A stretch of 36,396 bases of DNA, from assembly GCA_028289045.1 (NCBI GenBank), contig JAQGHB010000051.1, positions 1-36,396 of the forward strand. Direction: 5' to 3'. Numbering within the stretch: the stretch's first letter is position 1; each line of letters opens with the position of its first letter. Below are positions 4,726 to 35,715 of this stretch, piece after piece. A program made the position numbers and the translations under genes. The DNA is from Candidatus Saccharimonadota bacterium (GTDB taxonomy: Bacteria > Patescibacteriota > Saccharimonadia > Saccharimonadales > UBA4665). The notes under the pieces are model-generated. The model searched no databases. It worked only from the letters and a program-made list of their open reading frames with translations, and was not told where the DNA came from.

Positions 4726-4728
4726 AGC

Positions 4729-5328: not shown

Positions 5329-5447
5329 TATTCCCTCCTTATTTACACCTTAAAGTATAAGCCCCTTTTTTATTTTCCGAAAGCTTATAATAATTCGTGT
5401 ATACTGAAGTAATTCAATAATTCTTATGTTGCGAGAGTACAGAGGGT

Positions 5448-13891: not shown

Positions 13892-13963
13892 TACGACCCT
13901 CCAGATGTTATAAAAAGTATGCGATACCTGACGGATAAATACAAGTTAAACCCGAGGAGGAGT

Positions 13964-14653: not shown

Positions 14654-14656
14654 TGA

Positions 14657-15172: not shown

Positions 15173-15180
15173 ATATTCTC

Positions 15181-16314: not shown

Positions 16315-16369
16315 GCCCTTAATATACATGAAACTTGCACTTTTTGGTGCTGTCGCTAACAATAGAGGC

Positions 16370-18730: not shown

Positions 18731-19429
18731 CCGCGAAAGTCGCTGATCGTTCAAATAATCTTGTATGTCGATAGGCAGCCAGACTTTTTCGGTGGTTTGA
18801 ACATTCTGAGACAAGTCTTCGGCTGTGTCGCCAGGCATTACCGGAACGGGATGAGAACGAAAAACACTGCCAGTATCATAATCAGCGGCAACTGCGTGAG
18901 TGGTTTGCGCGGAGTAGCTCAGCCCGTCCTCTAACACCTTCTCCTGAACATGGATGCCGTGATAGCCCTGGGTGTGCGGAAGCGGCCCTGGGTGTGTGTT
19001 AAGCATGCGGGCGTCAAAACTTGAAGTATGGGTCGACAGCGCGCCGTATTCTTCCAGTAATTCGCCGCGAACCTTTCTCATATAGCCTACCAGACCCACC
19101 AGCGCGGTGTTGCTTGCGGCTGCGACAGCGCATATGGCCTCGGACTCAGCCAGGGATTGTTCGCCACGCTGGCCAGCGCCAGTTGGATGAGTCTGGCCGC
19201 TAATATGTAGCTTTCGGATGCCAAGACCATATTGCTTATTCAGACGGTCAACACGATCAAAGACACCGGCGTCCTCGTTGTTGGAGATAACCTGGACGAC
19301 TTCTGCCTGTAAGATGCCGGTTTGGGTGGCGTGAATTACTGCTTCGGCGGTTGAGCCGCTGCCGGAAGCGAGGAGGGTAATGACGGGATAGTGACGTTCA
19401 CTCATAATTGATTGCATGTATGGTGACAC
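18725..19429 (-). CDS. purN: phosphoribosylglycinamide formyltransferase (PurN-like), divergent
   Basis: LLASGSGS nucleotide loop, NTHPGPLP (Asn/His catalytic pair) and a later Asp block (ADYDTG). The track start at 19429 is a GTG, and ATG alternatives lie at 19417 and 19405. Confidence 0.78.
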   Translation of the reverse strand: MSPYMQSIMSERHYPVITLLASGSGSTAEAVIHATQTGILQAEVVQVISNNEDAGVFDRVDRLNKQYGLGIRKLHISGQTHPTGAGQRGEQSLAESEAICAVAAASNTALVGLVGYMRKVRGELLEEYGALSTHTSSFDARMLNTHPGPLPHTQGYHGIHVQEKVLEDGLSYSAQTTHAVAADYDTGSVFRSHPVPVMPGDTAEDLSQNVQTTEKVWLPIDIQDYLNDQRLSRL

Positions 19430-19721: not shown

Positions 19722-21269
19722 CTACTGACCCCAGAAGCTGCAGAGGGTAGACAGATCGAAGATATCAACCGTGCCGTTGCCATCGAGGTCACCTTGAGCT
19801 CGTGTGGCACCAGATGTCTTGCCGTAGTTGCTGGCGAGAGCGCTGAGATCGAAGATATCAACCGTGCCATTACCATCAACATCACCGCTCTTAACAATCG
19901 TAGTAACAGCCAGGGCTGTTGATGACGCAGAGGTCTTGGCTGCAGCGTCGTAGGCTTGGATGGTGAAGGAGTACGTGGCTCCGGAAGTTAAGCCTGTTGC
20001 GGTGTAAGAGGTCGTGGCGCTGGTACCAACCTTGGTGCCATTGCGGAGTATATTGTAGCCGGTTACGCCGACGTTATCGGTGGAGGCGGTCCAGCTCAGC
20101 GTGGCAGTGGTCGCAGTTTTAGATGGAGATGTCAGACCAGTTGGAACTGAAGGAGCGACGGTGTCAGCCAGCGTGCTTACAGACAATGCCGCTGTTTGGG
20201 CTGAAGTCTTGGCTGCGGCATCGTAAGCTTGAACCGTGAAGGAGTAGGCAGTGCCTGGCGTGAGGCCGGTGCTGGTGTATGAGGTTGTGGCGCTGGTACC
20301 AACTTTTGTGCCATCACGGTAGATGTTGTAGCCGATCACGCCGACATTATCGGTGGAGGCGGTCCAACCCAATGTGATGCTATTTACCGTGCTGGCCGAC
20401 GAAGTTAATCCGGTTGGAATGCTGGGCGCTACTGTATCGGCAGCCGTGCTTACTGCGAGAGCTGTTGATGAAGCTGAAGTCTTGCCTGCGGCATCGTACG
20501 CTTGAATGGTATACGAATAACTGGTGCTCGGGGTTAACCCTGTATTCGTGTAGGAGGTCGTAGTAGTGGTCGCTAGCTGGGTGCCATTGCGCAGGATATT
20601 GTAGCCAGCCACGCCCACATTGTCGGTGGCAGCTGCCCAGCTCAAACTAATGCTTGTCGCTGTCGTGGCGCTTGATGCCAGACCGGTCGGAACACTGGGA
20701 GGCGTCAAATCGGCAATGGTGTAGGTAGCGCCAGTGGTGGCGCCAGCCGCTATGTCCTGCTGCGTGGTCGTGCTCACGAGTGCAGTGCCGGTACCAAACG
20801 CAACAGAGGTCGTGCCGGTGGTAAGAGCTTTAAATGTCACGACCGCAACTGTCTGTGAGCCGGTGCGCACTGCGGTGGCGCCGCGGGCTATCTGTAGCAG
20901 GCCTGCGCCGTTATCGGTAGTTTGGGCGGCGATATCAAAGGCGCTGGTGCCGGTAGGTGTGTCAGTGCTGACGTAGCTTAACTTCGTAGGATCATAGGTA
21001 AGGTTGGCCTGAACCGCGTTGACCGTGTCTGTAGTACTATTTTCCATAATGGTCACCGTAAAGTTATTGCCAAGGCTAATTGATGAGCTGGCCGGTGACA
21101 AGCTCATGGAGCCTGGTGTGGCAGCGTGTGTGAAAGCTAGAATGTAGATTCCGACGCCGGCAAAGATAACGGCGAACAAAGCAGCAGTAAGCTGGGGGCC
21201 TTTCAAGTTTTTCAATTTTTTGGTTACTGATTTCATAGTAATGCCCAGATTAAGGTTTCTGCTCCTCAT
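19722..21269 (-). CDS. secreted/anchored cohesin - 3x fibronectin-type-III - dockerin protein
   Basis: N-terminal hydrophobic signal/anchor. Cohesin-like module (TVTIMENS..VNAVQANLTYDPTKLSYV..VTFKAL). Three roughly 91-aa FN3 repeats. C-terminal duplicated Ca-binding dockerin segments GDVDGNGTVDIFDLSAL and GDLDGNGTVDIFDLSTL. Alternative ATG at 21236. Confidence 0.85.
   Translation of the reverse strand: MRSRNLNLGITMKSVTKKLKNLKGPQLTAALFAVIFAGVGIYILAFTHAATPGSMSLSPASSSISLGNNFTVTIMENSTTDTVNAVQANLTYDPTKLSYVSTDTPTGTSAFDIAAQTTDNGAGLLQIARGATAVRTGSQTVAVVTFKALTTGTTSVAFGTGTALVSTTTQQDIAAGATTGATYTIADLTPPSVPTGLASSATTATSISLSWAAATDNVGVAGYNILRNGTQLATTTTTSYTNTGLTPSTSYSYTIQAYDAAGKTSASSTALAVSTAADTVAPSIPTGLTSSASTVNSITLGWTASTDNVGVIGYNIYRDGTKVGTSATTSYTSTGLTPGTAYSFTVQAYDAAAKTSAQTAALSVSTLADTVAPSVPTGLTSPSKTATTATLSWTASTDNVGVTGYNILRNGTKVGTSATTSYTATGLTSGATYSFTIQAYDAAAKTSASSTALAVTTIVKSGDVDGNGTVDIFDLSALASNYGKTSGATRAQGDLDGNGTVDIFDLSTLCSFWGQ
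19896..20711 (-). repeat. three tandem ~273-bp coding repeats (FN3 modules)
   Basis: Units at about 20711-20439, 20438-20166 and 20165-19896. Each encodes D(L/T)(T/V)(P/A)PS.PTGL.S......(I/T)(S/T)L.W.A.TDNVGV.GYNI.R.GT......TTSYT.TGLT....YS(Y/F)T(I/V)QAYDAA.KTSA. The similarity is visible at DNA level. Confidence 0.85.
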
Positions 21270-22467
21270 TAGTCGGCTTGGTGATACTACCAGGTGTTTG
21301 GGGTTTTGGACTGTCGGGGTGGATTGAGATCGGTTTGCTCAGATCGCCAACTACCATGGTATCTGGTGTGCCTGAGCCGCCCATGCCGGATGGCGGGTTG
21401 AACTTATTCTTGCGAGGGATGATGAAGCCCGCGATACCGAGTCCGGCGATGACCAGGAGTATGAGACCGTAGATGAGCCAGCTTGGTGTGGCATGGGATG
21501 CAAGTTTGATATTGAACTCTTGCAAGTTCTGCTTGTCTGAAGTTGGTTGAACGACTTTAACTGACTGAGACTGTGTTTTGCCAGAGTATGTGACTTTCGC
21601 GTTATAGGTACCGACGGCCACGCCGATGAAGCCAGCCAAGCCGTTGGCATCAGTTTTAAGTGTTTTACCATCAAGGGTCACAGTAGCGCCCACCACAGCT
21701 TTGTCCTTGCTGTCATGCACTTTAATGGCGACAAAGTAGGTGCCTGGGGTCAAAATGCCTGGAGTTTCGCCGGTAGCGCCTGTGGTGTTAGGAGTAGTCG
21801 CGGGTGTTGGGGAACCTGATACACCAGTGGTTGATGGTTTTGTAGGCTTGGAAGTCGTCGAACCACCGGAAGCAGGCTTGGAGCTACTCGAGCCACCGCT
21901 AGATGCAGGTGGCGTCACGGGGGTCGGAGGTGTCACTGCCGCGGCTTTCAACACGAAGTTTGCTCCTGCAGGATCGTCATTCCAAAGATTTGAATGATCG
22001 ATGCTACTGGCGACGATGGCGGTCGCGCCAACAAAGCGCAGTGGCGTGCCTGATGATGTTCCGATGACTTTAAAGACAAGCGTACCAGCTGTTTGGCTGC
22101 CTGTAAGTTGACCATTGAGCTGAGCACGAATAATATTCGCTACGCCGCCGCTTGCATCGGTTGAAATATCGACACTGCTAAAGGCGGCTGCTGAAGCGTC
22201 AAGGCTGATAAATTGCAGGACGCTAGGATCGTAGCTGAGATCAACATGCACTGCGTTTACGGCTTGCGTGCCGCTATTCTCGGTAATCTTAGCGCTAATC
22301 GTGTCACCAACAGTGTATGTACCGCTGGAGGGAGTAATACTATAGATTGCATTGCCTGCGGCTTTGGCGCTATGAACAGCAAATCCCAGGACCGCTACAC
22401 CTATAACTACTGCTAAAAGCCCGCTATGGGCGAAGGTTTTTATTTTTGATTGGGGTTTTATGGTCAT
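21250..22467 (-). CDS. membrane-anchored cohesin-domain surface protein (scaffoldin-like anchor)
   Basis: Signal peptide ending HSAKA. Cohesin-like module (ISAKITENSGTQAVNAVHVDLSYDPSVLQF..LVFKVIG). Ser/Thr/Pro-rich linker. CarboxypepD_reg-like beta-sandwich (VGATVTLDGKTLKTDANGLAGF). C-terminal TM helix WLIYGLILLVIAGLGIAGFII plus a cytoplasmic tail. Confidence 0.8.
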   Translation of the reverse strand: MTIKPQSKIKTFAHSGLLAVVIGVAVLGFAVHSAKAAGNAIYSITPSSGTYTVGDTISAKITENSGTQAVNAVHVDLSYDPSVLQFISLDASAAAFSSVDISTDASGGVANIIRAQLNGQLTGSQTAGTLVFKVIGTSSGTPLRFVGATAIVASSIDHSNLWNDDPAGANFVLKAAAVTPPTPVTPPASSGGSSSSKPASGGSTTSKPTKPSTTGVSGSPTPATTPNTTGATGETPGILTPGTYFVAIKVHDSKDKAVVGATVTLDGKTLKTDANGLAGFIGVAVGTYNAKVTYSGKTQSQSVKVVQPTSDKQNLQEFNIKLASHATPSWLIYGLILLVIAGLGIAGFIIPRKNKFNPPSGMGGSGTPDTMVVGDLSKPISIHPDSPKPQTPGSITKPTNEEQKP

Positions 22468-23639: not shown

Positions 23640-25495
23640 TTCTGATATTCCAATATAAATTTTTGAGTTTCCTGGCTACCGGCGACGGCCCGTTCGGCTG
23701 ACGCTTCCAATGGAGTGAGCCAATCTAAAAACAGCTTTGGGCTGGCTATGTCGGATTGAGTGAGCGCTTTACGGGCGGCGCTGCTATGACTCGTGATGAG
23801 CTCGGCGACAACATGTATGGTCGATCGCCAAAATATCTGCCGCAAAACAGGCAATTCGGTTTTGAGGTTGATCGATCCCGCAGCGCCGTGCTCTTTGAGT
23901 AGCAAGCAAGCCACCGCGCTCAAGTGGCCGCGCGCCAGATCTTCTTCCCAATCATGGGCGTCATCATTAAGCTGGCGCGCAATCAGGAAATGATGAAAAA
24001 ATTTCTGAAGTTGCGGCACTTTGGCTGCACTGTTTCCGGCCATCAGCACGCCGCAGGCCGCCAAGCTGTGCCCCCACGAGCGCTCTGCCAGCTGCCGGTA
24101 GTCTCCATATGTCGGCAAGGTGTAGTGTAGCCTGCCCTTTAGCGCGGTGGCCCGAGCTTGAGTAACTTCCCAGAGATTGGCAGTGTCCATGGCGACAAAA
24201 GCGTCATCAACCAGTGCGGTAAAACGTACGTTGTCAGGCAGCGCTTTGGCAAAATGTGTAACCGATTGGCGGAGCGCGTAGTGCGCCGCGCTCAGCAGTG
24301 CCAGCTGTCCTTCCTCATCCAAAAAGTCATCATAGATACTGTAGGCAATCCAGCCATTGAGGCTACCCAGGTTGAGCTGTTCTAACATTTTTTTGTCGGC
24401 TGTACGGTCGTAGGCTCGGGCTGTCAGTGTGGCCATATCGCTAATTTGGCCATCATGATCACGCGCAGCAATTTGCCTAACAATGTTTTGATACGCTGTA
24501 CCGAGTTCCGCGGGTAGCGATTTGCTGCTGGCAAGGGCCGCTCGTATGGTCGGGCTGGTCACGACGAGAGTTTTTTTCGGTGTTTCCTCGGAATGGATTT
24601 CAGAAAGCGCTTCCAGCGCAAACGCAGTCGTCAATGCCGCCGAACCGGCGTAATACTGCTGACCATCGAGATGTGGGTCAACGTACAGCGCTTCGGCTGG
24701 CCAGTGTCCGTCATGGCGCAGCGCCAGCAATCGTCTACGCGCGGAAGCAATTTTGGATGCTGGCAGCTGTATATTGCGGGCGGCGGTTATAAGAAGCGCC
24801 AGCTGCAAGCTAGTATGAGTTTTGGACGCGTCCAAGCTGTCGGCAACGAGTTTTTGGAGCGCATTCAGCTGGGGCCCCTTGTACCAGCGCGACAGAAAAT
24901 ATAACGAAGGAATACTGCTCACGTAGTACGGCGATCTCAGCGTATTTTTCTGGATGGCTTCATCCAAGAAGCTGTTTAGACCAGCCAGCTCAACGCCTTG
25001 CCGGCTAAAAAAAGCACCAATATTAGCGTTGACCACAACATCGATATCTTGCCACTGCGTGCCATCAGATTTCACTAGCCAGGTACGATACGGTCCGCCT
25101 GGTGCCGCCTCGGTGGCAATCAGTAATTTAGCGAATTGAGCCAGCGCGGCGGCATCAACTAGCGTGGAGTTGAAGCTCTGCAGCGCCAAAAGCGCGCAAC
25201 TAGTATCGTCGAGATCATCCGGATACGGGTGCTGCAGGGCCATATCGCTGCTAGTTTGCCAGTAGTTCCAGGATCCCTGCGGACTCTGTTGGCCTTGCAA
25301 AAAAGCGACTGCTGCGGCGCGAATAGAATCAGTACCCGCGACATTGCGCAGACACCATACAATCAGCGATGTAAAAAAGTTGGTAGGATGCTGCCGCGTT
25401 GGTTCAAACGGCATCATCGCAGTACTGGCCTGCCCCATAAAACTGCCGTCCGCGGCTTGCTGGTTCGCCAAGTATGCCACCCCCTCTGTCATCAT
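23636..25495 (-). CDS. fusion protein: N-terminal squalene-hopene-cyclase/prenyltransferase-type alpha/alpha barrel + C-terminal squalene/phytoene-synthase-like class I isoprenoid synthase domain
   Basis: N-terminal roughly 300 aa: QW-type motifs YLANQQAADGSF and FLQGQQSPQGSW, plus YPDDLDDTS (nt 25202-25216), which resembles the DxDDTA of class II cyclases. C-terminal roughly 290 aa: DDFLD (nt 24317-24331) and, 121 aa later, QLNDDAHDWEEDLARG (nt 23942-23968 covers NDDAHDWEE). The second aligns with the QLxNIxRDVxED..RG motif of CrtM/CrtB/SQS. Confidence 0.75.
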   Translation of the reverse strand: MMTEGVAYLANQQAADGSFMGQASTAMMPFEPTRQHPTNFFTSLIVWCLRNVAGTDSIRAAAVAFLQGQQSPQGSWNYWQTSSDMALQHPYPDDLDDTSCALLALQSFNSTLVDAAALAQFAKLLIATEAAPGGPYRTWLVKSDGTQWQDIDVVVNANIGAFFSRQGVELAGLNSFLDEAIQKNTLRSPYYVSSIPSLYFLSRWYKGPQLNALQKLVADSLDASKTHTSLQLALLITAARNIQLPASKIASARRRLLALRHDGHWPAEALYVDPHLDGQQYYAGSAALTTAFALEALSEIHSEETPKKTLVVTSPTIRAALASSKSLPAELGTAYQNIVRQIAARDHDGQISDMATLTARAYDRTADKKMLEQLNLGSLNGWIAYSIYDDFLDEEGQLALLSAAHYALRQSVTHFAKALPDNVRFTALVDDAFVAMDTANLWEVTQARATALKGRLHYTLPTYGDYRQLAERSWGHSLAACGVLMAGNSAAKVPQLQKFFHHFLIARQLNDDAHDWEEDLARGHLSAVACLLLKEHGAAGSINLKTELPVLRQIFWRSTIHVVAELITSHSSAARKALTQSDIASPKLFLDWLTPLEASAERAVAGSQETQKFILEYQK

Positions 25496-26898
25496 GAACT
25501 CGGCTTAGTCTGGCTGCGCAGTCTGACAGTAAAACAAGTGCCGCGCTTCGGCGAACTGGTGACAGTGATGCGGCCCATAAAATCAGCGGTGACAATCTGC
25601 TGTACCATCGCCAGACCAATGCCCATATTCTGCTGATTATGCTGCTTAGTGCTGTAGAACGGCTCGAAAATATGCTGCTTTTCATCTGCGCTGAGGCCGT
25701 GTCCCCAGTCGCAGACCTGCACCTGACAGGTTTTCTCGGTGCGCTTAATGGTGATGACTACGCGCCTTTCACCAAAAGGTGTCGGGTGGTCATCGTATGC
25801 TTCAATGCTATTAATAAGCAGGTTAGCGATTAGCTGATTGAACTTCACCGGATCGCCAAACAAGCGAATCTGAGCGTCGCTTATGATCTCAAACTTGACG
25901 CCACCCTCGCGGGCTCGGTGGCCGAGAATACGCGTCACTTGCTTTACTTCCTGGTGCAGGCTGAAATTAGTGAGGTTGCCCTGCCCTTTGAGCTGCTTGC
26001 GTGCAGCGTCAACGAAGCGTTCAATGTGCTGCAGACTTTGAACGGCTCGGCGCAGCAGAACTGGCCGCGGCTCACTGCTGTGTTGCTCTAAGTTCAGTGA
26101 TGCTACCGTCAAAGGATTTGACATTTCATGTAGTAAACCGGCACTGAGCCGCCCAAATTCTGCTAGGCGCTGTAATTCCATAACGCGGACGAGTTGCGCC
26201 TGCTCTAGCTCGCGAGTGCGCTCGGCGACTTTAACTTCCAGATTATCGCGCTCTAGTTCCAGCGCATGTTCGGAGGTGCGAGCCCGAGCTAGCGAGCGAG
26301 TGGTCTCACGATTGGCCAGCCAGGCCACCAGCCCGATTATCAAAAGTATAACGGTGTAGCCAATCGCCGAGGCCATTTCAAGTCTAAAACCTGCCCAGCT
26401 CAGGTCGGGATGAAGATAGCCGTACACTTGCGCGTAACTGATTGGCAAAAGTCCCACCGCGACAACGCAGCTGGCAATCAGCGCCGCCCGCGCGGTGAGC
26501 AAGACGCCAGCTATAACAATGGCGAGCGCCAGAACAAGTTGAGCTGAGGGTAATTCAAAACTCCATGTCAGAACGAGCTGTAGGGCTGCGACCAGTAAAA
26601 ATCCCACCAATACGTAGGCGACAACTTGGTGGTAGCCTTTGCGTGATAATTTCCATAAGCCAGCGATAACCACCGTAAAAACAAGCAGTATTGGCAACGC
26701 AGAACCTTTGCCGCCACCATCCAGACGATTACCTATATTAGAAAGATCAGCAATAACCGCGATGACCGTTAGTCCACAGAGCAAAATATTCAGAATAAGC
26801 TCTCGACGCTGCTGGTCTGGGGTCAAGCTGCGCGGCGCGAGAAATTTTTTGTACCAATTTGAGGTGTCAATTTGAAAGCGGAAACGGGACACAGGCAC
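25492..26898 (-). CDS. sensor histidine kinase with six N-terminal TM helices and no extracytoplasmic domain
   Basis: Six hydrophobic helices joined by short loops, then a coiled coil. H-box FGRLSAGLLHEMSNPL, N-box LLINSIEAY, G1 DWGHGL, G2 GIGLAMV. GTG start. Its stop overlaps the next ATG (ATGA at 25492-25495). Confidence 0.9.
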   Translation of the reverse strand: MPVSRFRFQIDTSNWYKKFLAPRSLTPDQQRRELILNILLCGLTVIAVIADLSNIGNRLDGGGKGSALPILLVFTVVIAGLWKLSRKGYHQVVAYVLVGFLLVAALQLVLTWSFELPSAQLVLALAIVIAGVLLTARAALIASCVVAVGLLPISYAQVYGYLHPDLSWAGFRLEMASAIGYTVILLIIGLVAWLANRETTRSLARARTSEHALELERDNLEVKVAERTRELEQAQLVRVMELQRLAEFGRLSAGLLHEMSNPLTVASLNLEQHSSEPRPVLLRRAVQSLQHIERFVDAARKQLKGQGNLTNFSLHQEVKQVTRILGHRAREGGVKFEIISDAQIRLFGDPVKFNQLIANLLINSIEAYDDHPTPFGERRVVITIKRTEKTCQVQVCDWGHGLSADEKQHIFEPFYSTKQHNQQNMGIGLAMVQQIVTADFMGRITVTSSPKRGTCFTVRLRSQTKPSS

Positions 26899-26927
26899 AA
26901 CCTATACAGTAGTAATATTGATGTTTT

Positions 26928-26957
26928 ATGAAGGGATCGGTTACCCGATCCCTTCAT
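26928..26957 (-). other. perfect 13-bp stem / 4-nt loop hairpin directly after the 38-aa ORF (attenuator or transcript-stabilising element, not a canonical terminator)
   Basis: ATGAAGGGATCGG-GTAA-CCGATCCCTTCAT on the minus strand, starting 2 nt after the sORF stop. It is followed by AAAACATC, not a U-tract. Confidence 0.6.
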
Positions 26958-26959
26958 CA

Positions 26960-27076
26960 CTAGGCTACGTCAGCCCATGGCGTAAATGTCTCCGCCATGG
27001 AACTCGCCAAGTCTGGCATGCTCGCCGCGTCGCGTGCCGACACGTCGGTGAGCACTGTTTGCAAGAGCTCGTTCAT
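26960..27076 (-). CDS. unannotated 38-aa acidic small ORF between response regulator and kinase (MNELLQTVLTDVSARDAASMPDLASSMAETFTPWADVA)
   Basis: The ATG lies 20 nt after the RR stop and is preceded by AAAGGGGG with a 6-nt spacer. The ORF is followed by the hairpin. It falls below the 60-aa cut-off of the ORF track. It has a single Trp five residues from the C-terminus, no Cys and no signal peptide. Confidence 0.5.
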   Translation of the reverse strand: MNELLQTVLTDVSARDAASMPDLASSMAETFTPWADVA

Positions 27077-27096
27077 TGCCTACCCCCTTTATATTA

Positions 27097-27786
27097 CTAT
27101 GTGCTACTACTTTTGAATGCATCAATTTTGTAGCCAAGTCCATGTACCGTTTTGATTAACGGTGTCCCAAATGGGCGGTCAATTTTGTCGCGCAGGTATT
27201 TGATGTGCACGTCAACGGTATTGGTCAATGAATCATCGGTATCGTCCCAGGCGTAGCTGCTGAGCGTGGCCCGCGTCACGACCATGCCGGTATTTTGCAT
27301 CAGGCATTCCAGGACGGCGAATTCTTTGCGCCGCAGCGGAATGTTTTGCCCTGCTCGCTGTACTAGGTGCTTAATGGTATCAAGCTCCAGATCGCCGACA
27401 ACCAGACGATGGCGACTTTTGGATGAGCTGCCTGGACGGCGCGTCAGCACCCGCAAGCGAGCTTTTAGCTCGTCCATACTGAAAGGCTTGGTGAGATAGT
27501 CGTTGGCTCCGCTGTCGAGGAGGGTTACCTTGTTCATAACTTCAGTGGCACCGCTTAAAACCAGGATAGGCGTGGTGAGCCCGCTGGTACGAACTCGCTC
27601 GCAGATTTTGAGGCCTGGCGAATCAGGAAGGTTTAAATCCAGAATAATAGCGTCGTATGGGTGCTCGGTGAGCTTTTGCATGGCTCGGGCGCTGGTACCG
27701 ACCGTATCCACCGTATATAGCGTCGCTAGGGCGCGGTACAGCACCAGAACTATGCCTGGATCATCTTCTACAATCAGTAAGCGCAT
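27097..27786 (-). CDS. OmpR/PhoB-family response regulator
   Basis: Receiver domain (LLIVEDD, ILDLNLPD, TKPF) plus a winged-helix output domain (LRRKEFAVLECL ... VHGLGYKI). Confidence 0.93.
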   Translation of the reverse strand: MRLLIVEDDPGIVLVLYRALATLYTVDTVGTSARAMQKLTEHPYDAIILDLNLPDSPGLKICERVRTSGLTTPILVLSGATEVMNKVTLLDSGANDYLTKPFSMDELKARLRVLTRRPGSSSKSRHRLVVGDLELDTIKHLVQRAGQNIPLRRKEFAVLECLMQNTGMVVTRATLSSYAWDDTDDSLTNTVDVHIKYLRDKIDRPFGTPLIKTVHGLGYKIDAFKSSST

Positions 27787-28187: not shown

Positions 28188-28341
28188 AGTATTCTCCCCT
28201 GTTAGGTATGGCGTGATCGGCTGGATAATTCTGATCCTCCGGCCAGGCTTACTCCTTAGTATGCGCCTTTTTGGCCATTTTGCCTAGCTCGTGTCTGATT
28301 ACGCCAGTACGACTACTGGCAGAACCTACAAAACTATAATA

Positions 28342-28370
28342 TTGAAAAATAATGAAAGACGTGTTAAAAT
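28342..28370 (+). promoter_or_regulatory. sigma70-like promoter TTGAAA-17-TAAAAT, 10 nt upstream of the GT2 ATG (leaderless-type)
   Basis: Hexamers at 28342-28347 and 28365-28370. The ATG at 28381 has no SD. Confidence 0.45.
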
Positions 28371-28380
28371 ATTGTTAATT

Positions 28381-29541
28381 ATGAAGACCGAGACAACTTC
28401 AGCTCGTCTGTTAAAAACACAGGCCCAACATTCTTCAAGCGCACGTGTATACAAGAAGAAGCTAGCTTTGCTGCTGCCTGCTCACAATGAAGAACTTATT
28501 ATCCAGGCCACCATTCTGTCGGCCATCGCCGCTGGCCAGCCCAAAGACCGTATTTTTGTGGTTGACGATAACTCATCGGATAAAACTCGCCGCAAAGCAA
28601 TGGAAATACTGGGACATAAGCAAGTCCTAACCGTTCAGCGCAGTGGCAAGGCCCTAGCTGTTTACAAGGCAATACGTCGCTTCAAAATTGTGGAACGCTA
28701 TCGCTGGTTGCACGTGGCTGACGCCGACAGCGTCTTCGGAAGTGATTATTTCCGAATCTACAGTCCGGCGCTCAAAGGCAAAGAGTACGTCGCAGCTGTG
28801 GGTTTCGTGCAGAGCCTACGTGGCAACTGGATCAGTAAATATCGAGTGTTTAGCTACACCTACGGACAGCAAATATTGAGACGCATGCAGTCAAAGGTGG
28901 GTATGATATCGGTCTTTCCTGGGCCTGTCACCAGTTTTCGTACTGACATCATTGAAAAGCTTGATTTCTCGGCCGAAAGCCTTACCGAAGATTTTGATAT
29001 TACATTACAATTCCATCGCCAGAAATTAGGCAAAATCCGCTATATACCTAATGCTGTTAACTTTACGCAGGATCCTCAAACACTTCGTGATTTCTGTAAG
29101 CAAACTGCGCGTTGGCATCGTGGATTTTTCCAGGGCGTTCGAAGGCATAAAATTGGCCGTCGTGCACAGCCCATCGATCTATACATCGGCTATCAGCTGA
29201 CCGAAACAGTGCTTTATTTGGCACAAATTTTTATACTCCTGCCGCTGCTTATTTTTAGTACACACCCTCATCGCTGGAGCATCATCCCGCTCTTTATGTT
29301 GACTGAATATTTTATGATTTGTATCATCGCGATTTTTACCGCTGCCGCCGCGAAGAGGCCCATCAGTCTGAGCGTTGTGCCAGTATTCTACCTGATGCGT
29401 ATGCTCGAGCTAGGAATCTTTACGATGGCGTTTTTCGAAGTCATTGTGCTGCGACGCTTTCAGCAGCAAACCATCGGCTGGCAAACCGAAAATCGTCGTT
29501 ACTCATTGGATAGTAATGCTCTGCAGGATGCAGCCTCATGA
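28381..29541 (+). CDS. processive family-2 glycosyltransferase (PgaC/IcaA/NodC/cellulose-synthase-like)
   Basis: LLPAHNEE, VVDDNSSD, ADADS, TEDFD and the QxxRW-type motif QTARWHRG, followed by C-terminal TM helices. I placed the start at 28381 on promoter evidence. The track ORF begins 30 codons upstream at a GTG. Confidence 0.85.
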   Translation: MKTETTSARLLKTQAQHSSSARVYKKKLALLLPAHNEELIIQATILSAIAAGQPKDRIFVVDDNSSDKTRRKAMEILGHKQVLTVQRSGKALAVYKAIRRFKIVERYRWLHVADADSVFGSDYFRIYSPALKGKEYVAAVGFVQSLRGNWISKYRVFSYTYGQQILRRMQSKVGMISVFPGPVTSFRTDIIEKLDFSAESLTEDFDITLQFHRQKLGKIRYIPNAVNFTQDPQTLRDFCKQTARWHRGFFQGVRRHKIGRRAQPIDLYIGYQLTETVLYLAQIFILLPLLIFSTHPHRWSIIPLFMLTEYFMICIIAIFTAAAAKRPISLSVVPVFYLMRMLELGIFTMAFFEVIVLRRFQQQTIGWQTENRRYSLDSNALQDAAS

Positions 29542-29669
29542 CAAAGCGTGCTATAGCTAAGCGTCGAATGCTCTTCGACCGCGTCGCCAGCTCACTGCTT
29601 ATTGTAATTGTTGTTGGCTACATCATTTTTCACTTGTATGGTTTTGCCACTTTTCTTGGCCACTTGTAA
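29538..29669 (+). CDS. possible 43-aa single-TM partner of the GT2 synthase (MTKRAIAKRRMLFDRVASSLLIVIVVGYIIFHLYGFATFLGHL)
   Basis: Its ATG overlaps the GT2 stop (ATGA). A basic N-terminus is followed by one hydrophobic helix. Below the ORF-track cut-off. Confidence 0.4.
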   Translation: MTKRAIAKRRMLFDRVASSLLIVIVVGYIIFHLYGFATFLGHL

Positions 29670-30263
29670 CTAGACTTTTTGGAAGCCAACGAACGCGAAC
29701 TGATACATCTGGCGATTTTGGAACCAGCTGCCTGAACATGTCTGGATAGTTAATAGCGGGGCACCCTGGTACTCAAATATTGAAGTATCTGTAGGGTTCG
29801 TAGCGTAAGCGCCGATATAACGGTAGGTGAAAACGTAGCCATTTGTAGCTTTTACCTGAACGAGACTGCCATCTTTTATCAAATGTAGCCGTGCGAAGAC
29901 CTCAGCGCGATAGTGGCCGTATATGAGCGTGTTGCCGCGAGCATTATTAGGTATGACGCTAGGCGTGGCGAACTGGGCTTTGTCAGACGTCAGTGTCCAA
30001 GTGCCCTCTGCGCGATTGTAGTAGCCATTAATAACAGGCAGATCAATCCCAAGGTCTGGAATGATAATTTCAGCTGGCTGACCGCTCACCGTTACCGGCG
30101 GAAGTTTACTGGCGGCGGATGACATCTGTTTGATGTTGCCGGGATTAATACTGCCGGCATCGGTAGTCTGATAATAAATGGTTGGCGCGATGCCGACGAT
30201 GCCAAGCACGACAAGCAGCAGGCTCAGTTTAAGTATTTTTCGTGGTGGGAGATGTAAATTCAT
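29670..30263 (-). CDS. sortase (cysteine transpeptidase)
   Basis: N-terminal membrane anchor. Catalytic His in LIYGHY, TLxTC-type Cys in LLTIQTCSG, and the conserved Arg in FQNRQMY. Confidence 0.9.
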   Translation of the reverse strand: MNLHLPPRKILKLSLLLVVLGIVGIAPTIYYQTTDAGSINPGNIKQMSSAASKLPPVTVSGQPAEIIIPDLGIDLPVINGYYNRAEGTWTLTSDKAQFATPSVIPNNARGNTLIYGHYRAEVFARLHLIKDGSLVQVKATNGYVFTYRYIGAYATNPTDTSIFEYQGAPLLTIQTCSGSWFQNRQMYQFAFVGFQKV

Positions 30264-30279
30264 AATGAGTTTACAAGCA

Positions 30280-30308
30280 AAGAGGCAACACGAATAGTGT
30301 CACCTCTT
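30280..30308 (-). other. 12-bp stem-loop between the LPNTG micro-ORF and the sortase gene
   Basis: Minus-strand RNA AAGAGGUGACAC-UAUUC-GUGUUGCCUCUU. The two non-Watson-Crick positions are G-U pairs only on the minus-strand transcript and would be C-A mismatches on the plus strand. It is followed by UGCUUGU. Confidence 0.5.
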
Positions 30309-30319
30309 TTACCTGCCTC

Positions 30320-30496
30320 TTAGCGAGTTGATCGCTGTCGGTAAGCCATAACGCCACTGACTGCGGTGCTGATCACACCGATAGCCAAAGCTGCCATAGC
30401 AACCCAGAAGAGAACGCGTGAGCTGCCAGTGTTTGGTAGTACAGCGATTGCTGCTCCACCGCCCAGGCCGCCAACTTTTGGTATAGAACCGCTCAT
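30320..30496 (-). CDS. unannotated 58-aa LPXTG sorting-signal micro-protein (MSGSIPKVGGLGGGAAIAVLPNTGSSRVLFWVAMAALAIGVISTAVSGVMAYRQRSTR)
   Basis: SD AAGGAG 6 nt upstream of the ATG, with an in-frame TAA 7 codons upstream. LPNTG (nt 30425-30439) is followed by a hydrophobic helix and the basic tail RQRSTR. It lies 56 nt upstream of the sortase gene. The track instead lists two implausible 90/93-aa ORFs here. Confidence 0.7.
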   Translation of the reverse strand: MSGSIPKVGGLGGGAAIAVLPNTGSSRVLFWVAMAALAIGVISTAVSGVMAYRQRSTR

Positions 30497-30676
30497 TGGT
30501 GCTCCTTTTATTACTTATCGGCGAGCAATAGATTGCCTTTTCTTCTGCCGATATGTAACTGCCAGCATAGGAAAAGCCCACGGCTCCCTCGCTCGTCTTA
30601 AGCTGAGAATACTACATAAGTGCATAAATGTAAAGAGTAGTATTTAGTAAGCATGCTTAAGCTTAAATTTGCCGTA

Positions 30677-30738: not shown

Positions 30739-32742
30739 ATGAAGCGATTTTTCTTATTCCTAGCGACGTTTTTACTACTAACTGTGAGCGTTTTCCCTGC
30801 TGTCACAGTCTTTGCTGACACACCAGCCAACAATCTTATCTCTAATCCATCGCTTGAAGCTGCAGACGCAGCCAATCCTGCCGCGCCATCTGCCTGGCTA
30901 AAAGGTGGTTGGGGCAGCAACACTTCTTCGCTTTCCTACGCCTCCACCGGAAACACCGGCAGTCGTAGCGTCCGTGTCGACGTTACCAGCTATACCGATG
31001 GCGATGCCAAATGGTATTTCGCGCCAGTGGCCGTCACCGGTGGCAACCAGTACTCCTTCAGCGATTATTATCAGTCAAATGTCGCCACCAATCTGGTAGC
31101 TCAGTTTGATGATGGCGCTGGAAAGATGACCTACCAGAGCCTAGCGACCTTGCCGGCATCGAGCACCTGGAGTCCTGCTAATCTGGTATTTAAGGCGCCA
31201 GCAACTGCGCACAATGTCACCGTATTTCATCTTATAAGTAGTGTGGGTTGGTTGCAGACAGATGATTTCTCGCTCAGCGCCTATGCGCCAGCACCAGCTC
31301 CCACGGTGAGTATTACAGCTCCTTCTGCCAACACTTCGGTAAGCAATACGGTAGCACTCACTGCTAGTGCTACAGACACGACCGGTGTTGCTGGCGTACA
31401 ATTCAAGGTAGATGGTGCTGCAGTTGGCTCTGAAGATACGACAGCCCCCTATGCTGTTAACTGGGATAGCAACGCCGTCATAAACGGCCTGCACAGCCTG
31501 ACCGCTGTTGCCCGTAACACCTCTGGCCAAACCAGCACCTCGGCTCCTGTGCAGATTCTGGTGGCTAACAAAAACACCAGCACATCGAACGTCGTGCCTA
31601 ACAGCTCCCTGGAGACCACCGATCCTGCCAATGCCAAACTGCCACAGAGCTGGCAAAAAGGCGGTTGGGGCAGCAATACCACGGCCTGGACCTATCCATC
31701 GAACGGGCACACCGGCAGCCGTAGTGTCAAAGCGCAAATCAGCGCGTACACCAATGGCTCGGCATACTGGTACTACGGTGCTCAAAATGTGACCTCCGGC
31801 CAGGTATATCGCTTCACCGACTACTACAAATCCAATGCGATCAGTGACGTCGAGGCTGGCGTAACCATGGCCGATGGCAGTGTGCAGTATGTCTATATTG
31901 GCAGCCCATCACCCAGTTCAACCGCTTGGACTAAGTTTGACGCTACACTGACTATGCCAGTCGGTGCAGTCTCGGCCACTATCTACCACAGCATCAATAG
32001 CGTCGGCTGGGTACAGATAGATGATATGACAATGGCGCCATTTGCGTACCAAGGCTTCAACCGCCCGCTGGTCAGTATCACCATAGATGACGGCTATGCC
32101 AGCTCCTACACCAATGGTTTGCCCATTCTGAAGAAGTACGGCTTCACCTCGACCAACTACATCATCACTGGCTCGATCGGTACTGACCCGTACATGACTA
32201 AGGCCCAGCTCAAGCAAATGGCGGCCAGTGGTCAGGAAATTGGCTCACACACCGTTACTCATCCGGACTTGACTACCCTGAGTGCCACCAAAATGGATAA
32301 CGAGCTCAAGAAATCCCAGGCTTCACTGGTGTCTTGGCTTGGTGCCGGTGTGCCAATTAAGCAATTCGCATCGCCTTATGGTGCTTATAACGGCGCTGCC
32401 GTGGCTGACGCTCAGAAATATTACAGCACCTACCGTGGCGTGCAGGCTGGTTACAATGCCAAGAATAATTTTGATCCATACAACATCCGCGTTCAGAACC
32501 TGGTGAGTACTACCACCCAGGCTGAAGTCCAATCCTGGGTCGACACCGCCAAAGCCACTAATACCTGGCTCGTGCTGGTTTACCACCAGATTGATACCAA
32601 TCTTGCCTCTGATGATAGCCTGTACAATACACCGCCCGCAGACTTTGACGCCCAGTTGGCCTACATTAAAGCCAGCGGCATCGCCGTCAAGAACATCACT
32701 CAGGCTATGGCTGAGCTGACCCCTCAGCTGACCTCAAACTAA
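30739..32742 (+). CDS. secreted polysaccharide deacetylase (NodB domain) with two CBM-like modules and an Ig-like module
   Basis: Sec signal ending VFA. Two paralogous roughly 150-aa modules (N..PN.SLE..D.AN...P..W.KGGWGSNT......GHTGSRSV...) flank an Ig-like segment. C-terminal NodB block VSITIDDGYAS ... GSHTVTHPDL. Confidence 0.85.
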   Translation: MKRFFLFLATFLLLTVSVFPAVTVFADTPANNLISNPSLEAADAANPAAPSAWLKGGWGSNTSSLSYASTGNTGSRSVRVDVTSYTDGDAKWYFAPVAVTGGNQYSFSDYYQSNVATNLVAQFDDGAGKMTYQSLATLPASSTWSPANLVFKAPATAHNVTVFHLISSVGWLQTDDFSLSAYAPAPAPTVSITAPSANTSVSNTVALTASATDTTGVAGVQFKVDGAAVGSEDTTAPYAVNWDSNAVINGLHSLTAVARNTSGQTSTSAPVQILVANKNTSTSNVVPNSSLETTDPANAKLPQSWQKGGWGSNTTAWTYPSNGHTGSRSVKAQISAYTNGSAYWYYGAQNVTSGQVYRFTDYYKSNAISDVEAGVTMADGSVQYVYIGSPSPSSTAWTKFDATLTMPVGAVSATIYHSINSVGWVQIDDMTMAPFAYQGFNRPLVSITIDDGYASSYTNGLPILKKYGFTSTNYIITGSIGTDPYMTKAQLKQMAASGQEIGSHTVTHPDLTTLSATKMDNELKKSQASLVSWLGAGVPIKQFASPYGAYNGAAVADAQKYYSTYRGVQAGYNAKNNFDPYNIRVQNLVSTTTQAEVQSWVDTAKATNTWLVLVYHQIDTNLASDDSLYNTPPADFDAQLAYIKASGIAVKNITQAMAELTPQLTSN

Positions 32743-34010
32743 AAGCTATCGAACAGCCAAAAGTCGATGTGGTTATCGACGAGCTTGTTGACGAAATCAA
32801 TAAACACCATGGTGTTGTCGCTTGGTACTGGCGCGCCAGCTTTCCAGTACGACCAGTCTGTCCCTTCGCTGGTAGCAGACTTATCCTCGCTGAATAGATT
32901 CACTGATATATTAAAACCACTGGTCTGGAGGTTGCGTGCTTGCTGAACGACGCCGGTGAGCATGGCTTGTCGCTGCAGCGGGCTAACGCTGACCTGCTGG
33001 CTGGCGTTCTGAGCGTACATGCGCCCAAAGGTGCCCGTATTGAGCCAAATGCTGTGTGCACCGAGCTGCCGGGCGGCTTCAGAAGCCAGAGACGAGGCAA
33101 GATACTGCGCGGGATTATAGCTGGACGCCTGGTTAACGCCAGCCGCTGGAGCCCACGGAAAGCCCTGGTACCCAAAACTATCGATTAGGCCAACTGGAAT
33201 GTCTTTGACATAAGGTAGCAAGCTCACATACGAGCCACCGCCCCAATCAGTGCTACCAGCCGGATAGGATTGACTATCTAGTAGAATACTAGCCTGGCTG
33301 CCAGGAAAATATTTCTTTTGCAGATTAACTGTGCGCGTAATGTTGGGCGCGAAGTCGGCTGGATTGGTCGGGCCCCATTCGGGGTGATTTGCCTCCGGAA
33401 AGTACGCCCAGGTGCCCATGGATGCACTGGTTACACCTCGCTGCTGCAAACTCTGATAATATGCGTCCAGAATACTGTCGTAGGCACCCTGGCTGTAGCT
33501 ACGAAAATCAACCACGCCTCGTTCGTTTGTCGGCTCCATGACAACCAGCGGTTGCACACCGTAGTGTGCAAATTCCTGCAGAGTGCCAGCCATATCAGCT
33601 GCCGCGGCTGGTACATCCGATTGGGTTGTGGGGATGTTGGTAAAAAGCATGGCGTGGCTGGCAAGCGCGCCGCCATACACCTTTTCGTACTCGGCTAGTT
33701 TGCGGAGCACCAGGCTGGAGCTTTGCGCCATGCCGACGTGGGCTTGGGCGATGCTTCGAGGCGTTACAGGAGTTATTTGATTCACAGATGCTGTTAACGG
33801 GTTAGTTTTCTTGGCTTGAGAGGCTGTGGTTTTGGGTGACGAATTTTTCCGAGCTGAGGCTTTATCTGCGGTCAGTTGTTTATGATATGCCGCCAGGCCT
33901 GGCGCCGCCCCGTGTGCGAACAGGAGACTAAATAAAAACATACAGAAAGCAAAGCCCAGCAAGCTGTGCCTCAAGCCCACCTTGCCATGAGTTACTCTCC
34001 GTACGTGCAC
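32739..34010 (-). CDS. secreted protein, putative TIM-barrel glycoside hydrolase-like (function uncertain)
   Basis: N-terminal hydrophobic signal/anchor, a Ser/Thr/Lys-rich linker, then roughly 320 aa with alternating strand/helix pattern and acidic strand ends (VVMEP, FPEANHPEW, FGYQGFPW, WLNTGTF). GTG start, uncertain. Confidence 0.5.
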   Translation of the reverse strand: MHVRRVTHGKVGLRHSLLGFAFCMFLFSLLFAHGAAPGLAAYHKQLTADKASARKNSSPKTTASQAKKTNPLTASVNQITPVTPRSIAQAHVGMAQSSSLVLRKLAEYEKVYGGALASHAMLFTNIPTTQSDVPAAAADMAGTLQEFAHYGVQPLVVMEPTNERGVVDFRSYSQGAYDSILDAYYQSLQQRGVTSASMGTWAYFPEANHPEWGPTNPADFAPNITRTVNLQKKYFPGSQASILLDSQSYPAGSTDWGGGSYVSLLPYVKDIPVGLIDSFGYQGFPWAPAAGVNQASSYNPAQYLASSLASEAARQLGAHSIWLNTGTFGRMYAQNASQQVSVSPLQRQAMLTGVVQQARNLQTSGFNISVNLFSEDKSATSEGTDWSYWKAGAPVPSDNTMVFIDFVNKLVDNHIDFWLFDSF

Positions 34011-34158: not shown

Positions 34159-35178
34159 ATGATAGATTTAACGGTCATAGTTCCGGCGTACAACGAAGCA
34201 GAATGCATCGGCTACACGATTGAATCTATCCAAAAACAAACCCTCCACCCAAAAGAGATAATCGTTGTGGATGATTTTTCGAACGACGGCACAGGTGACA
34301 TAGCTCGCTCTTATGGAGTCACGGTTATTCGGCCGCCAGCCAATACCGGTTCCAAAGCCGGTGCGCAGAACTTTGCCCTAAAAGAGGTAAAAACCAAGCT
34401 CGTCATGGTAACTGATGCCGACACGACTTTAGCGCCCGATGCCGTTAAACAGCTAGTGCCAGCCTTCCGGGAGCCCAGCGTGGCAGCGGCCTGCGGCTTT
34501 GTCATCCCCAAAAAAGTAACCACTGTTTGGGAGCGCGGGCGGTACATTGAATATTTATTTTCCTTTAGTTTTTATAAGCAGATTCAGGACTTTTATGGGA
34601 ACCCGCTGATATCGTCCGGCTGCTTATCCATGTATCGAACGCCGTATTTGCTAGAGGCCGGCGGGTGGTCTAACCGAACCATGGCCGAAGACATGGATTT
34701 AACCTGGAGCTTATACCTGCTGGGCTACCGGATCCGCTTTATACCTACCGCTATCTGCTACCCAATCGAGCCAGACACACTGTCGCTGATGCACAAGCAG
34801 CTCAAGCGTTGGTCGGCAGCATATTTACAAAACGTGCGATTACACTTCCGCGCAATTTCAAAGCTACCATTTTTGTTTACTGCCATGGCGGTATCTTTGA
34901 CTGACGCTCTGCTGAGTGCTTTGATCTACCTGATTGGCATTCCGCTCCTGATTCTGTTGGTCTCGCCGTGGTTTGGGCTTGGGTACATCCTGGACGCGCC
35001 AGTCATTCTGATTCCGACGCTGGTGATTGCTGCCAGGCGGCATGAGATTAAACAGGCTTTGACCAGCTTCCCTTCACTCTTCGTGTTGCGCATATTCAAC
35101 GGTTTTATTTTTTTGAAAGCAGTGCTGTTCGAAGTCGTACTACGGCAGCACCTCATAACGTACGAAAAGGGGCATTAA
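34159..35178 (+). CDS. processive family-2 glycosyltransferase (second copy)
   Basis: VIVPAYNEA, VVDDFSNDGT, TDADT, AEDMD and the QxxRW-type motif QLKRWSAAY, with C-terminal TM helices. SD AAGGTGAGG upstream. Confidence 0.85.
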   Translation: MIDLTVIVPAYNEAECIGYTIESIQKQTLHPKEIIVVDDFSNDGTGDIARSYGVTVIRPPANTGSKAGAQNFALKEVKTKLVMVTDADTTLAPDAVKQLVPAFREPSVAAACGFVIPKKVTTVWERGRYIEYLFSFSFYKQIQDFYGNPLISSGCLSMYRTPYLLEAGGWSNRTMAEDMDLTWSLYLLGYRIRFIPTAICYPIEPDTLSLMHKQLKRWSAAYLQNVRLHFRAISKLPFLFTAMAVSLTDALLSALIYLIGIPLLILLVSPWFGLGYILDAPVILIPTLVIAARRHEIKQALTSFPSLFVLRIFNGFIFLKAVLFEVVLRQHLITYEKGH

Positions 35179-35181
35179 AGT

Positions 35182-35715
35182 ATGAATAATGGATTTAACG
35201 GAACGGGCACAGCGTTTATTTTGTATATTATTTTGGCATTTTGTATGCCGTTTGTGTATGTCTACCGGCTCACGAAGCGCCAAAAAGACTTTAGCTATAA
35301 ATTTGTAGCAGGTCATTTTTTGTTGGGCACCAGCGTAACGATCCTAGCAGTACTATGTGTCGGGTATTTATGGCGAATGCTAGCCATCAGCAAGCACGGC
35401 CATCTCCACCAAGCATTGGTTGCGATGGCCTACTTAGTAATCCTGACCATACTGACCTGGATTTTAATACCACGGCTGGTACGTGGCTCCTACCGCGTCA
35501 GGCGTAAGCAAGACGTGTTAAATTACAAAAATCCGCTGATAGAGCCGTGGTTCGTGCAACCGTACTACTACAAATTTACAAAACCTGTGCGTGTCCGTCG
35601 CGGTAAAAATATCGTCTTACTACGACCACGGATGCTGTACCTCCCGAAGCCGCCTGCTGGGTTAACACGACGATTCCAACTGGCATATAAAAATCATAGT
35701 CATCGTAGCACGTAG
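35182..35715 (+). CDS. integral membrane protein, possible GT2 accessory subunit
   Basis: 177 aa with 3-4 hydrophobic helices followed by a basic C-terminal tail. It starts 3 nt after the GT2 stop. Confidence 0.55.
   Translation: MNNGFNGTGTAFILYIILAFCMPFVYVYRLTKRQKDFSYKFVAGHFLLGTSVTILAVLCVGYLWRMLAISKHGHLHQALVAMAYLVILTILTWILIPRLVRGSYRVRRKQDVLNYKNPLIEPWFVQPYYYKFTKPVRVRRGKNIVLLRPRMLYLPKPPAGLTRRFQLAYKNHSHRST

Follow-up and report, generated by a model that had tools for sequence, protein, structure and literature searches.

Sortase substrates are defined as Sec-exported proteins with a passenger that is displayed on the cell wall. Some sortases form pairs with one adjacent target, such as SrtB with IsdC, or the class GN 'marine' sortase (TIGR03784) with the one target encoded beside it. 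In the exosortase/PEP-CTERM systems linked to exopolysaccharide (EPS), a GT2 glycosyltransferase is associated with the enzymes XrtG and XrtP (NCBIfam TIGR03111, NF053846). A small protein of Actinobacteria, SafA, is encoded downstream of srtA, carries PGP and FPW motifs and no LPXTG, and shields SrtA from signal peptidase (PMC9282373). Sortases in genomes of the Candidate Phyla Radiation (CPR) and predicted sorted proteins in TM7 have already been noted (PMC3812714, PMC6744442). In this study, we analysed a 36,396-nt stretch from a Candidatus Saccharimonadota bacterium (contig JAQGHB010000051.1, positions 1 to 36,396; hereafter the window), in which a sortase gene is preceded by an open reading frame (ORF) of 58 amino acids (aa), here called the mini-ORF. 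We found that an LPXTG ORF is conserved at this position in related genomes, and we propose, with moderate confidence, that the mini-ORF encodes a dedicated sortase substrate with neither leader nor passenger.

The mini-ORF starts with ATG and occupies positions 30320-30496 of the minus strand, including the stop codon. Its product consists of an N-terminal tail (N-tail) of 19 residues, the LPNTG pentapeptide, a hydrophobic segment and the C-terminal tail RQRSTR (MSGSIPKVGGLGGGAAIAV-LPNTG-SSR-VLFWVAMAALAIGVISTAVSGVMAY-RQRSTR). The LPNTG codons (residues 20-24) are located at 30425-30439 (minus strand), and sortase cleavage is predicted between T23 and G24. Computed from the protein sequence, cleavage after Thr23 would leave a 23-mer. 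The stretches with LPNTG that we considered as candidate substrate peptides were AAIAVLPNTGSSR and GGAAIAVLPNTGSSRV. The transmembrane (TM) segment spans 25 residues (28-52; 30341-30415, minus strand) and contains a mid-helix glycine, G40, that is nearly invariant in the family alignments. Thus, the hydrophobic segment followed by a positive tail, which is the layout of a sorting signal, is present in the window protein.

We found no n-region, h-region or AXA architecture of a Sec signal peptide in the mini-proteins, in which 11-38 residues precede LPXTG across the family. A secreted passenger domain is also absent, the 19-residue tail being all that precedes LPNTG in the window protein. The original prediction had read this ORF as essentially a bare LPNTG sorting signal with an AAGGAG Shine-Dalgarno (SD) sequence beside a sortase, lacking a signal peptide and a passenger, and the minus-strand sequence agreed with it on each of these points. 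It had also stated that the window encodes no other LPXTG protein. A six-frame scan of the 36 kb for an LPXTG-like motif, a hydrophobic stretch and a basic tail returned this ORF alone, and only one other candidate, in locus L080, was found in about 650 kb of related flanks.

Pfam PF00746 gave no match to the window mini-protein, and the homologue P0135 carries a precomputed PF00746 match. A Pfam DUF4231 match to the window protein (18.8 bits against a cutoff of 24.7) was rejected as a chance match to the TM region. We also rejected the idea that the N-terminus forms a second TM helix or hides a signal peptide, because the tail is as short as 11 residues and nothing would be left after signal-peptidase cleavage.

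To survey the related genomes, a sortase profile was scanned against one genome per GTDB species, and 80 loci were identified. Four of the 80 end at a contig edge just upstream of the sortase, leaving 76 evaluable loci from distinct Saccharimonadales species. An LPXTG ORF on the same strand was located immediately upstream of the sortase in all of them (76/76). The mini form (51-70 aa, no leader, no passenger) was found in 65 loci, and a long form (169-201 aa, with a signal peptide) in the remaining 11. A search for similar micro-ORFs upstream of orthologous sortases had been set beforehand as a check of the original prediction, and the outcome bears it out.

The mini-protein profile collected 586 clusters at 90% identity, nearly all of 55-62 aa, whose source names were 'hypothetical protein' or 'LPXTG cell wall anchor domain-containing protein'. 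An exhaustive search with a hidden Markov model (HMM), covering 1.84 billion representatives, yielded 248 family clusters at 50% identity, nearly all of 65 aa or less. The longer matches mostly aligned at their C-terminal end, which suggests over-extended start calls, and there was no ordinary large LPXTG protein among the best 150 matches. Two other assemblies contain the exact window mini-protein as a called gene.

The family consensus is MYGxVLGAxTxxxGAxVLPNTGGNxxLTxxAxxSIxVGxAILxxTxVRxVAKKAYKA. Within LPXTG, the family alignments show no variation at P and T and hardly any at L and G. Among the best 120 homologues, 117 carry LPNTG and 113 start with Met-Tyr. Their N-tail has a median length of 18 aa and a net charge of 0 in 73/120 and of ±1 in 46/120, and in 119 of them the charges of the final 14 residues sum to +3 to +5. 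One locus, L022 (about 3740-3920), has LPNTH instead of LPNTG, which is due either to natural variation or to a mistake in the assembly. In L004, P0134 and P0137, which are closest to the window mini-protein, the N-tail has two cysteines (VLGCSTTAC) that could form a small disulphide loop.

To examine whether the mini-ORF is translated, we compared its start signals and substitution patterns. In the related mini loci, all mini-ORFs start with ATG and have an SD sequence, mostly AAGGAG at 5-8 nt spacing. In close pairs, synonymous changes clearly outnumbered non-synonymous ones, with 19/1 for L010/L028, 15/3 for L014/L019, 19/4 for L025/L031 and 24/6 for L016/L040. For the N-tail alone, the counts in close pairs were 8/1, 10/2 and 5/0. 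This pattern indicates that the mini-ORF is a real protein-coding gene under purifying selection, N-tail included. A chance ORF or pseudogene remnant was ruled out by the conservation, the ATG and SD in every locus, and the synonymous excess.

The long substrates have a classical signal peptide, an Asn/Thr/Ser/Gly-rich domain with an NTGP(G/D)SxN motif, a linker and LPXTG. They were found in L049, L054, L055, L058, L060, L064, L069, L070, L075, L078 and L080, at about 3300-3950 in each. When the sortases were placed in a neighbour-joining tree, 10/11 fell within one clade, and L069 stood apart beside a mini locus; the tree is rough and midpoint-rooted and does not fix in which direction the long and mini forms changed. 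Since a conventional long substrate occupies the same position in one clade, the mini form is most simply viewed as a passenger-less variant of an ancestral one-sortase, one-substrate pair. We also observed 33 paralogous small secreted proteins resembling the long substrates in 12 loci. The composition of the long substrates recalls chaplins or curli, and no Pfam or NCBIfam family matched proteins of this type.

The sortase gene is located at 29670-30263 on the minus strand, starts 56 nt downstream of the mini-ORF and encodes a 197-aa protein with an N-terminal membrane anchor and a catalytic domain. It matches Pfam Sortase PF04203 with 58.6 bits (cutoff 26.6). The catalytic residues His117, Cys176 (LTIQTC) and Arg184 do not vary among 28 aligned sortase homologues, which come from Candidatus Saccharimonadales, that is, Saccharibacteria (TM7) of the Patescibacteria/CPR. 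The AlphaFold model (predicted local distance difference test score, pLDDT, 85.9) shows an N-terminal membrane helix and a compact beta-barrel with the eight strands of the sortase fold. Foldseek aligned it with SrtA, SrtE and SrtC structures with a probability of 1.0 and target-normalised TM scores of 0.6-0.7. A class assignment from structure was discarded, since classes A, E and C score alike and are not discriminated. None of the NCBIfam sortase class models (A-F, GN) reached its cutoff; the cutoffs are 140-166, and the highest scores came from class D (33.2 and 30.6 bits), followed by class F (28.7 bits), with classes E, C and GN below these. The protein is a genuine sortase outside the recognised classes. 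In L010 (684-1259, plus strand) and one other locus, we observed a different sortase-like gene (…LLTIYTCTP…) about 3 kb upstream of the mini-ORF/sortase pair.

Next to the coding evidence, the expression signals of the two genes differ. A promoter-like sequence, TTTACA-17-TATTCT, is located upstream of the mini-ORF at 30606-30634 (minus strand) and matches the consensus at 9/12 positions. At the corresponding place upstream of the mini-ORF, 69% of related loci had a match of at least 10/12 to TTTACA-16/17-TATAAT, versus 2.6% of controls, which were random windows from the same loci. The SD sequence AAGGAG lies 5 nt before the ATG (30502-30507, minus strand). An SD core of at least 5 nt precedes 50/64 mini-ORFs versus 2/64 sortase genes. 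The 5' untranslated region (UTR) of the mini-ORF corresponds to 30497-30605 (minus strand); leaders in related loci are 57-126 nt long and often open with a stem-loop. Their structure is modest (mean z -1.4, with 18/58 below -2; z -2.4 in the window), and the 5' UTR may act as an mRNA stabiliser or a regulatory leader.

Between the mini-ORF and the sortase, we identified a terminator-like hairpin at 30281-30307 (minus strand), with the stem AGAGGTGACAC/GTGTTGCCTCT and an 11-bp core that can be extended to about 22 bp over 30267-30319. The original prediction held that the G-U pairs of this stem-loop work on the minus-strand RNA only. Folding gave the same answer: the minus-strand RNA with its flanking A- and U-rich stretches reached -26.7 kcal/mol (z -5.9, 0/200 shuffles as good), whereas the plus-strand transcript reached -16.8 kcal/mol and lost that stem. 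An alternative arm, AGAGGCA, which had been proposed to compete for the 3' arm, does exist at 30314-30320 and is complementary to TGCCTCT; its role as a competing switch found no support, since the minimum-energy fold uses it to extend the main helix. A stable hairpin follows the mini-ORF stop (z < -2) in 55/62 mini loci, with a mean z of -4.1 and with sequences unrelated among loci. Many of these hairpins contain a T-run or lead into one. It is absent in the long-substrate loci, where the gaps between substrate and sortase are 4-38 nt. In the predicted fold, the U-run of the window (UUUGCUUGU) is interrupted and pairs with an upstream A-run; such pairing makes the U-run counts of our hairpin-extension script too low. 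Rfam gave no match to the hairpin or the 5' UTR at E values up to 1. By predicted strength and by position, the hairpin is terminator-like, not a proven terminator.

The simplest reading of these signals is that the mini-ORF message would be strongly expressed and largely monocistronic, with limited read-through into a weakly translated sortase. A strong promoter, SD and terminator-like hairpin, set against the weak SD of the sortase, predict an excess of the substrate over the enzyme. Such an excess is most simply read as the stoichiometry of a consumable substrate and its enzyme.

Taken together, these data make it reasonably probable that the mini-ORF product is a dedicated and abundantly expressed sortase substrate, leaderless and passenger-less, whose peptide is ligated to an envelope amine. 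The original prediction had preferred a dedicated mini-substrate to a conventional surface protein, and the 76/76 conservation, the synonymous excess and the expression signals, which are stronger than those of the sortase, support that preference. In the proposed mechanism, the mini-protein would enter the membrane N-out/C-in with no need of a signal peptide, in the way of small YidC-dependent proteins like the Pf3 coat protein. The short, near-neutral N-tail (11-38 residues) and the C-tail of +3 to +5 predict this orientation by the positive-inside rule. Tails as short as this are able to cross with no signal peptide, which would remove the apparent paradox of a leaderless sortase substrate. 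LPNTG would then be placed at the outer face of the membrane, beside the membrane-anchored sortase. Cys176 would cut between Thr23 and Gly24 and form an acyl-enzyme with the 23-residue peptide, which would be passed to an amine of the envelope. The acceptor is most probably lipid II or peptidoglycan, and we are less confident of this step than of the overall model. As a result, the wall would be decorated with many copies of a short peptide. Pilin-like polymerisation through a lysine nucleophile was rejected as a general mechanism, because the N-tail contains a lysine in 44/120 homologues only and at variable positions.

We then examined the neighbouring genes. A membrane GT2 glycosyltransferase of the synthase type (PgaC/IcaA/NodC-like), encoded at 28291-29541 on the plus strand, is a conserved neighbour of the sortase and was found in 74/75 loci. 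In 37 loci (10/11 long-substrate and 27 mini), it is on the same strand and starts -45 to +6 nt from the sortase stop. It is convergent to the sortase in 34 further loci, 27 of them within 400 nt, and the window is of this convergent type. In all, the GT2 stands beside the sortase in about 95% of loci. Divergent from the mini-ORF, at 30739-32742 (plus strand), is a gene for a secreted CE4 polysaccharide deacetylase with Big_7 and CBM-like domains; CE4 homologues were found in 56 loci, usually directly upstream and divergent. The best NCBIfam matches were PgaC/IcaA, EpsU and NodC for the GT2 (all sub-threshold) and HfsH-, PdaB-, PgdA- and IcaB-type models for the CE4 protein, and the family matches of both lie far under the curated cutoffs. 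This gene order suggests a conserved unit of substrate, sortase and GT2, often with CE4, and a link to surface polysaccharide. Given this link, the peptide might be part of a surface-polysaccharide module and serve, for instance, as an anchor bound to the wall.

Further genes around this unit were observed. A 43-aa single-TM ORF (MTKRAIAKRRMLFDRVASSLLIVIVVGYIIFHLYGFATFLGHL) at 29538-29669 (plus strand) overlaps the GT2 stop (ATGA), ends against the sortase stop and has been gene-called in other assemblies. Similar ORFs with a basic N-terminus and one TM segment lie 3' of the GT2 gene only in the subclade of the window (L001, L003, L004, L006, L016, L020, L030, L040). The 43-aa product could be an IcaD/PgaD-like accessory subunit. 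Beyond the CE4 gene, 32739-34010 (minus strand) encodes a 423-aa secreted protein without a Pfam or NCBIfam family, which was found upstream of CE4 in 19 related loci. It is followed at 34159-35715 (plus strand) by a second PgaC/NodC-like GT2 (339 aa) and a 177-aa ORF without a family. These additional GT2 and secreted-protein genes suggest that the surface-polysaccharide region is wider than the core genes.

Several points weigh against the mini-substrate model. Canonical sortase substrates need a Sec signal peptide, and the mini-protein has none. The model is built on sequence, conservation and predicted folding, from which we infer cleavage, topology and acceptor; these and the translation of the mini-ORF were judged from sequence and comparison rather than from experiment, and N-out insertion from charge and length alone. 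The TIGR01167 LPXTG_anchor model scores the mini-protein at 14.8 bits, just under its cutoff of 15.9. The hairpin often has no clean U-run, with clear T-runs 3' of the stem in some loci only, and a consensus terminator scan did not flag the hairpin of the window. Neighbour clustering revealed a second sortase close by in at least two loci, so the pair studied here is not necessarily the sole sortase system of these genomes. Our survey covered the loci and their flanks, and larger LPXTG proteins elsewhere in the genomes may be the main clients of the sortase. Saccharibacteria genomes are small and highly syntenic, so GT2 and CE4 may be adjacent because gene order is conserved and not because the genes work together.

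The gene context also allows a different role for the peptide, as a carrier or anchor covalently joined to a polymer of the N-acetylglucosamine (GlcNAc) type that is made by the GT2 and trimmed by the CE4 protein, giving a wall-tethered adhesive polymer. Either the sortase would use de-N-acetylated sugar amines as the nucleophile, or the N-tail, with its conserved Tyr2 and Ser/Thr residues, would be glycosylated before being fixed to the wall. A GT2 gene that abuts or overlaps the sortase stop in 37 loci, lies adjacent in 34 more and is present in 74/75, together with CE4 in 56, is what such a role would predict. The best matches to PgaC/IcaA and NodC and to HfsH, PgdA and IcaB types, and the Met-Tyr start of 113 of the best 120 homologues (consensus MYGxVLGAxT), fit it as well. 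However, the chemistry is drawn from gene context, and natural sortase transfer to sugar amines is not established. The GT2 and CE4 matches, far below curated cutoffs, do not identify the polymer, synteny says little about a common function when genomes are small and conserved, and the conservation of Tyr2 could stem from N-terminal processing or insertion. We consider this explanation unlikely, although it leads the alternatives. Slightly more doubtful is a version in which the sortase acts as a peptide-glycan ligase or anchor-maker, the mini-peptide tying a PgaC/IcaA-type, CE4-deacetylated polysaccharide to the wall, through sugar amines or a glycosylated N-tail, as a holdfast-like adhesive layer that these ultrasmall epibionts would use on their hosts; here, the entry of the signal-peptide-free N-tail into the envelope could be coupled to the synthase.

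The remaining alternatives concern the fate of the mini-protein itself. It might stay mostly uncleaved and bind the sortase by its TM helix and LPNTG as a membrane partner or pseudo-substrate regulator, which stabilises, positions or gates the enzyme in the manner of SafA. Its size is near that of SafA (52 aa), which is likewise genetically linked to a sortase (PMC9282373), and the nearly invariant glycine and conserved flanks of its TM segment are features that generic sorting signals lack. None of the hallmarks of SafA, namely a position downstream of srtA, PGP/FPW motifs and the lack of LPXTG, applies to the mini-protein, however, and homology to SafA was ruled out by gene position and motifs. 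In addition, a perfect LPNTG beside an active cysteine should be cleaved, the layout of promoter, SD and terminator predicts a large excess of the mini-protein that suits a consumable over a 1:1 partner, and one clade has an ordinary secreted LPXTG protein in this position. A regulatory role is thus improbable in our view. We give even less credence to a signal generator, in which hydrolysis would free a diffusible 23-mer, or a membrane C-peptide would be sensed by a histidine kinase. Signalling by C-peptides after sortase cleavage is a described concept (PMC11502775, citing S. gordonii work) and has been reported for streptococcal adhesins. In the window, a two-component system lies 2.5 kb off (25492-27786), and the conserved ...VAKKAYKA C-tail exceeds the needs of mere charge. 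But the conserved neighbours do not include the two-component system, purifying selection acts on the N-tail as well, and a signalling molecule would not usually have such very high expression signals. Sortases also prefer transpeptidation over hydrolysis when a nucleophile is given. Finally, the mini-ORF could be a decayed remnant of a truncated long substrate, or a leader peptide whose translation as an upstream ORF would, with the hairpin, attenuate sortase transcription. The hairpin immediately after the stop codon, the alternative pairing of AGAGGCA with TGCCTCT that overlaps the stop, and the long homologues at the same position in one clade are compatible with this. A leader would need neither selection along the whole peptide nor the sorting-signal features, all of which are kept across the 248 clusters, the alternative arm does not act as a competitor in the minimum-energy fold, and the hairpin sequences are unconserved with no conserved antiterminator apparent. 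This makes it the least credible explanation, and a highly improbable one.

Elsewhere in the window, we observed a near-complete cluster for de novo purine biosynthesis (85-19429), with genes for GuaA, PurA, two PurP-like DUF1246/DUF1297 proteins, a large PurL, PurM, PurK, PurC, PurB and a formyltransferase. The same region also encodes a major facilitator superfamily (MFS) transporter and an Fe/Mn superoxide dismutase. To our knowledge, Saccharibacteria are generally described as lacking de novo nucleotide synthesis, and a purine cluster is unusual for such a genome. At 19722-22467 (minus strand), a cohesin-dockerin-like pair of adjacent genes was found in this CPR genome, one gene encoding three fn3 domains and a type I dockerin and the other a cohesin and CarboxypepD_reg.

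If the mini-substrate model is true, a sorting signal alone can reach a sortase by a different membrane-insertion route, and bacteria use a sortase to install or consume short peptides in bulk, as a natural counterpart of laboratory 'sortagging'. Saccharibacteria are hard-to-culture epibionts whose envelopes mediate host attachment, and the locus provides a testable handle on their surface chemistry and a possible link between a sortase and a surface-polysaccharide module. With a 23-mer, a compact sortase and a defined motif, direct biochemical tests are straightforward.

We found no description of a leaderless mini-substrate family in the literature. A preprint on a CPR 'Pam pilus' was rejected as a match, since its pilins work by donor-strand exchange and have signal peptides, and neither a sortase nor an LPXTG protein appears in its supplement. 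The comparison points to a family of putative sortase mini-substrates that appears undescribed and differs from known substrates in lacking both signal peptide and passenger.

Compared with canonical LPXTG sorting (classes A-F), the mini-protein shares the LPXTG motif, hydrophobic segment and positive tail and is encoded beside an enzyme with the sortase fold and the His-Cys-Arg residues. In contrast, the protein has no signal peptide or passenger, is 58 aa long with a 19-residue tail as its cargo, and its sortase stays below every NCBIfam class cutoff. The locus resembles the one-sortase, one-target pairs in that a specialised sortase stands beside a single cognate substrate, and the long-substrate clade fits that scheme directly. 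The known targets are folded and secreted, whereas in most lineages here the product is a sorting signal with a short tail and nothing more, and its gene has its own strong promoter and a terminator-like hairpin. SafA is likewise a sortase-linked protein of about 50-60 aa with a single TM segment, conserved in a phylum-level group. Unlike SafA, the mini-protein is encoded upstream of the sortase and carries LPNTG, and no PGP or FPW motif is found in the family alignments.

Outside the sortase systems, the YidC substrates of the Pf3 coat and M13 procoat type have a similar short, weakly charged N-tail, one TM segment, a positive C-tail and no cleavable signal peptide. These are phage coat proteins without a sorting motif, and the likeness of the mini-protein to them is one of predicted features. 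The exosortase/PEP-CTERM systems also couple a C-terminal sorting enzyme to a GT2, and the XrtG/XrtP GT2 models are among the weak matches of the window GT2. They use another protease family and motif, and with GT2 matches far below the cutoffs this is an analogy only. Braun's lipoprotein Lpp is a functional analogue, being a very abundant polypeptide of about 58 aa that acts through transpeptidase attachment to peptidoglycan. Lpp differs as a Sec/Lol-exported lipoprotein of diderms that is joined through its C-terminal lysine by L,D-transpeptidases, and it has no sequence or mechanistic homology to the mini-protein.

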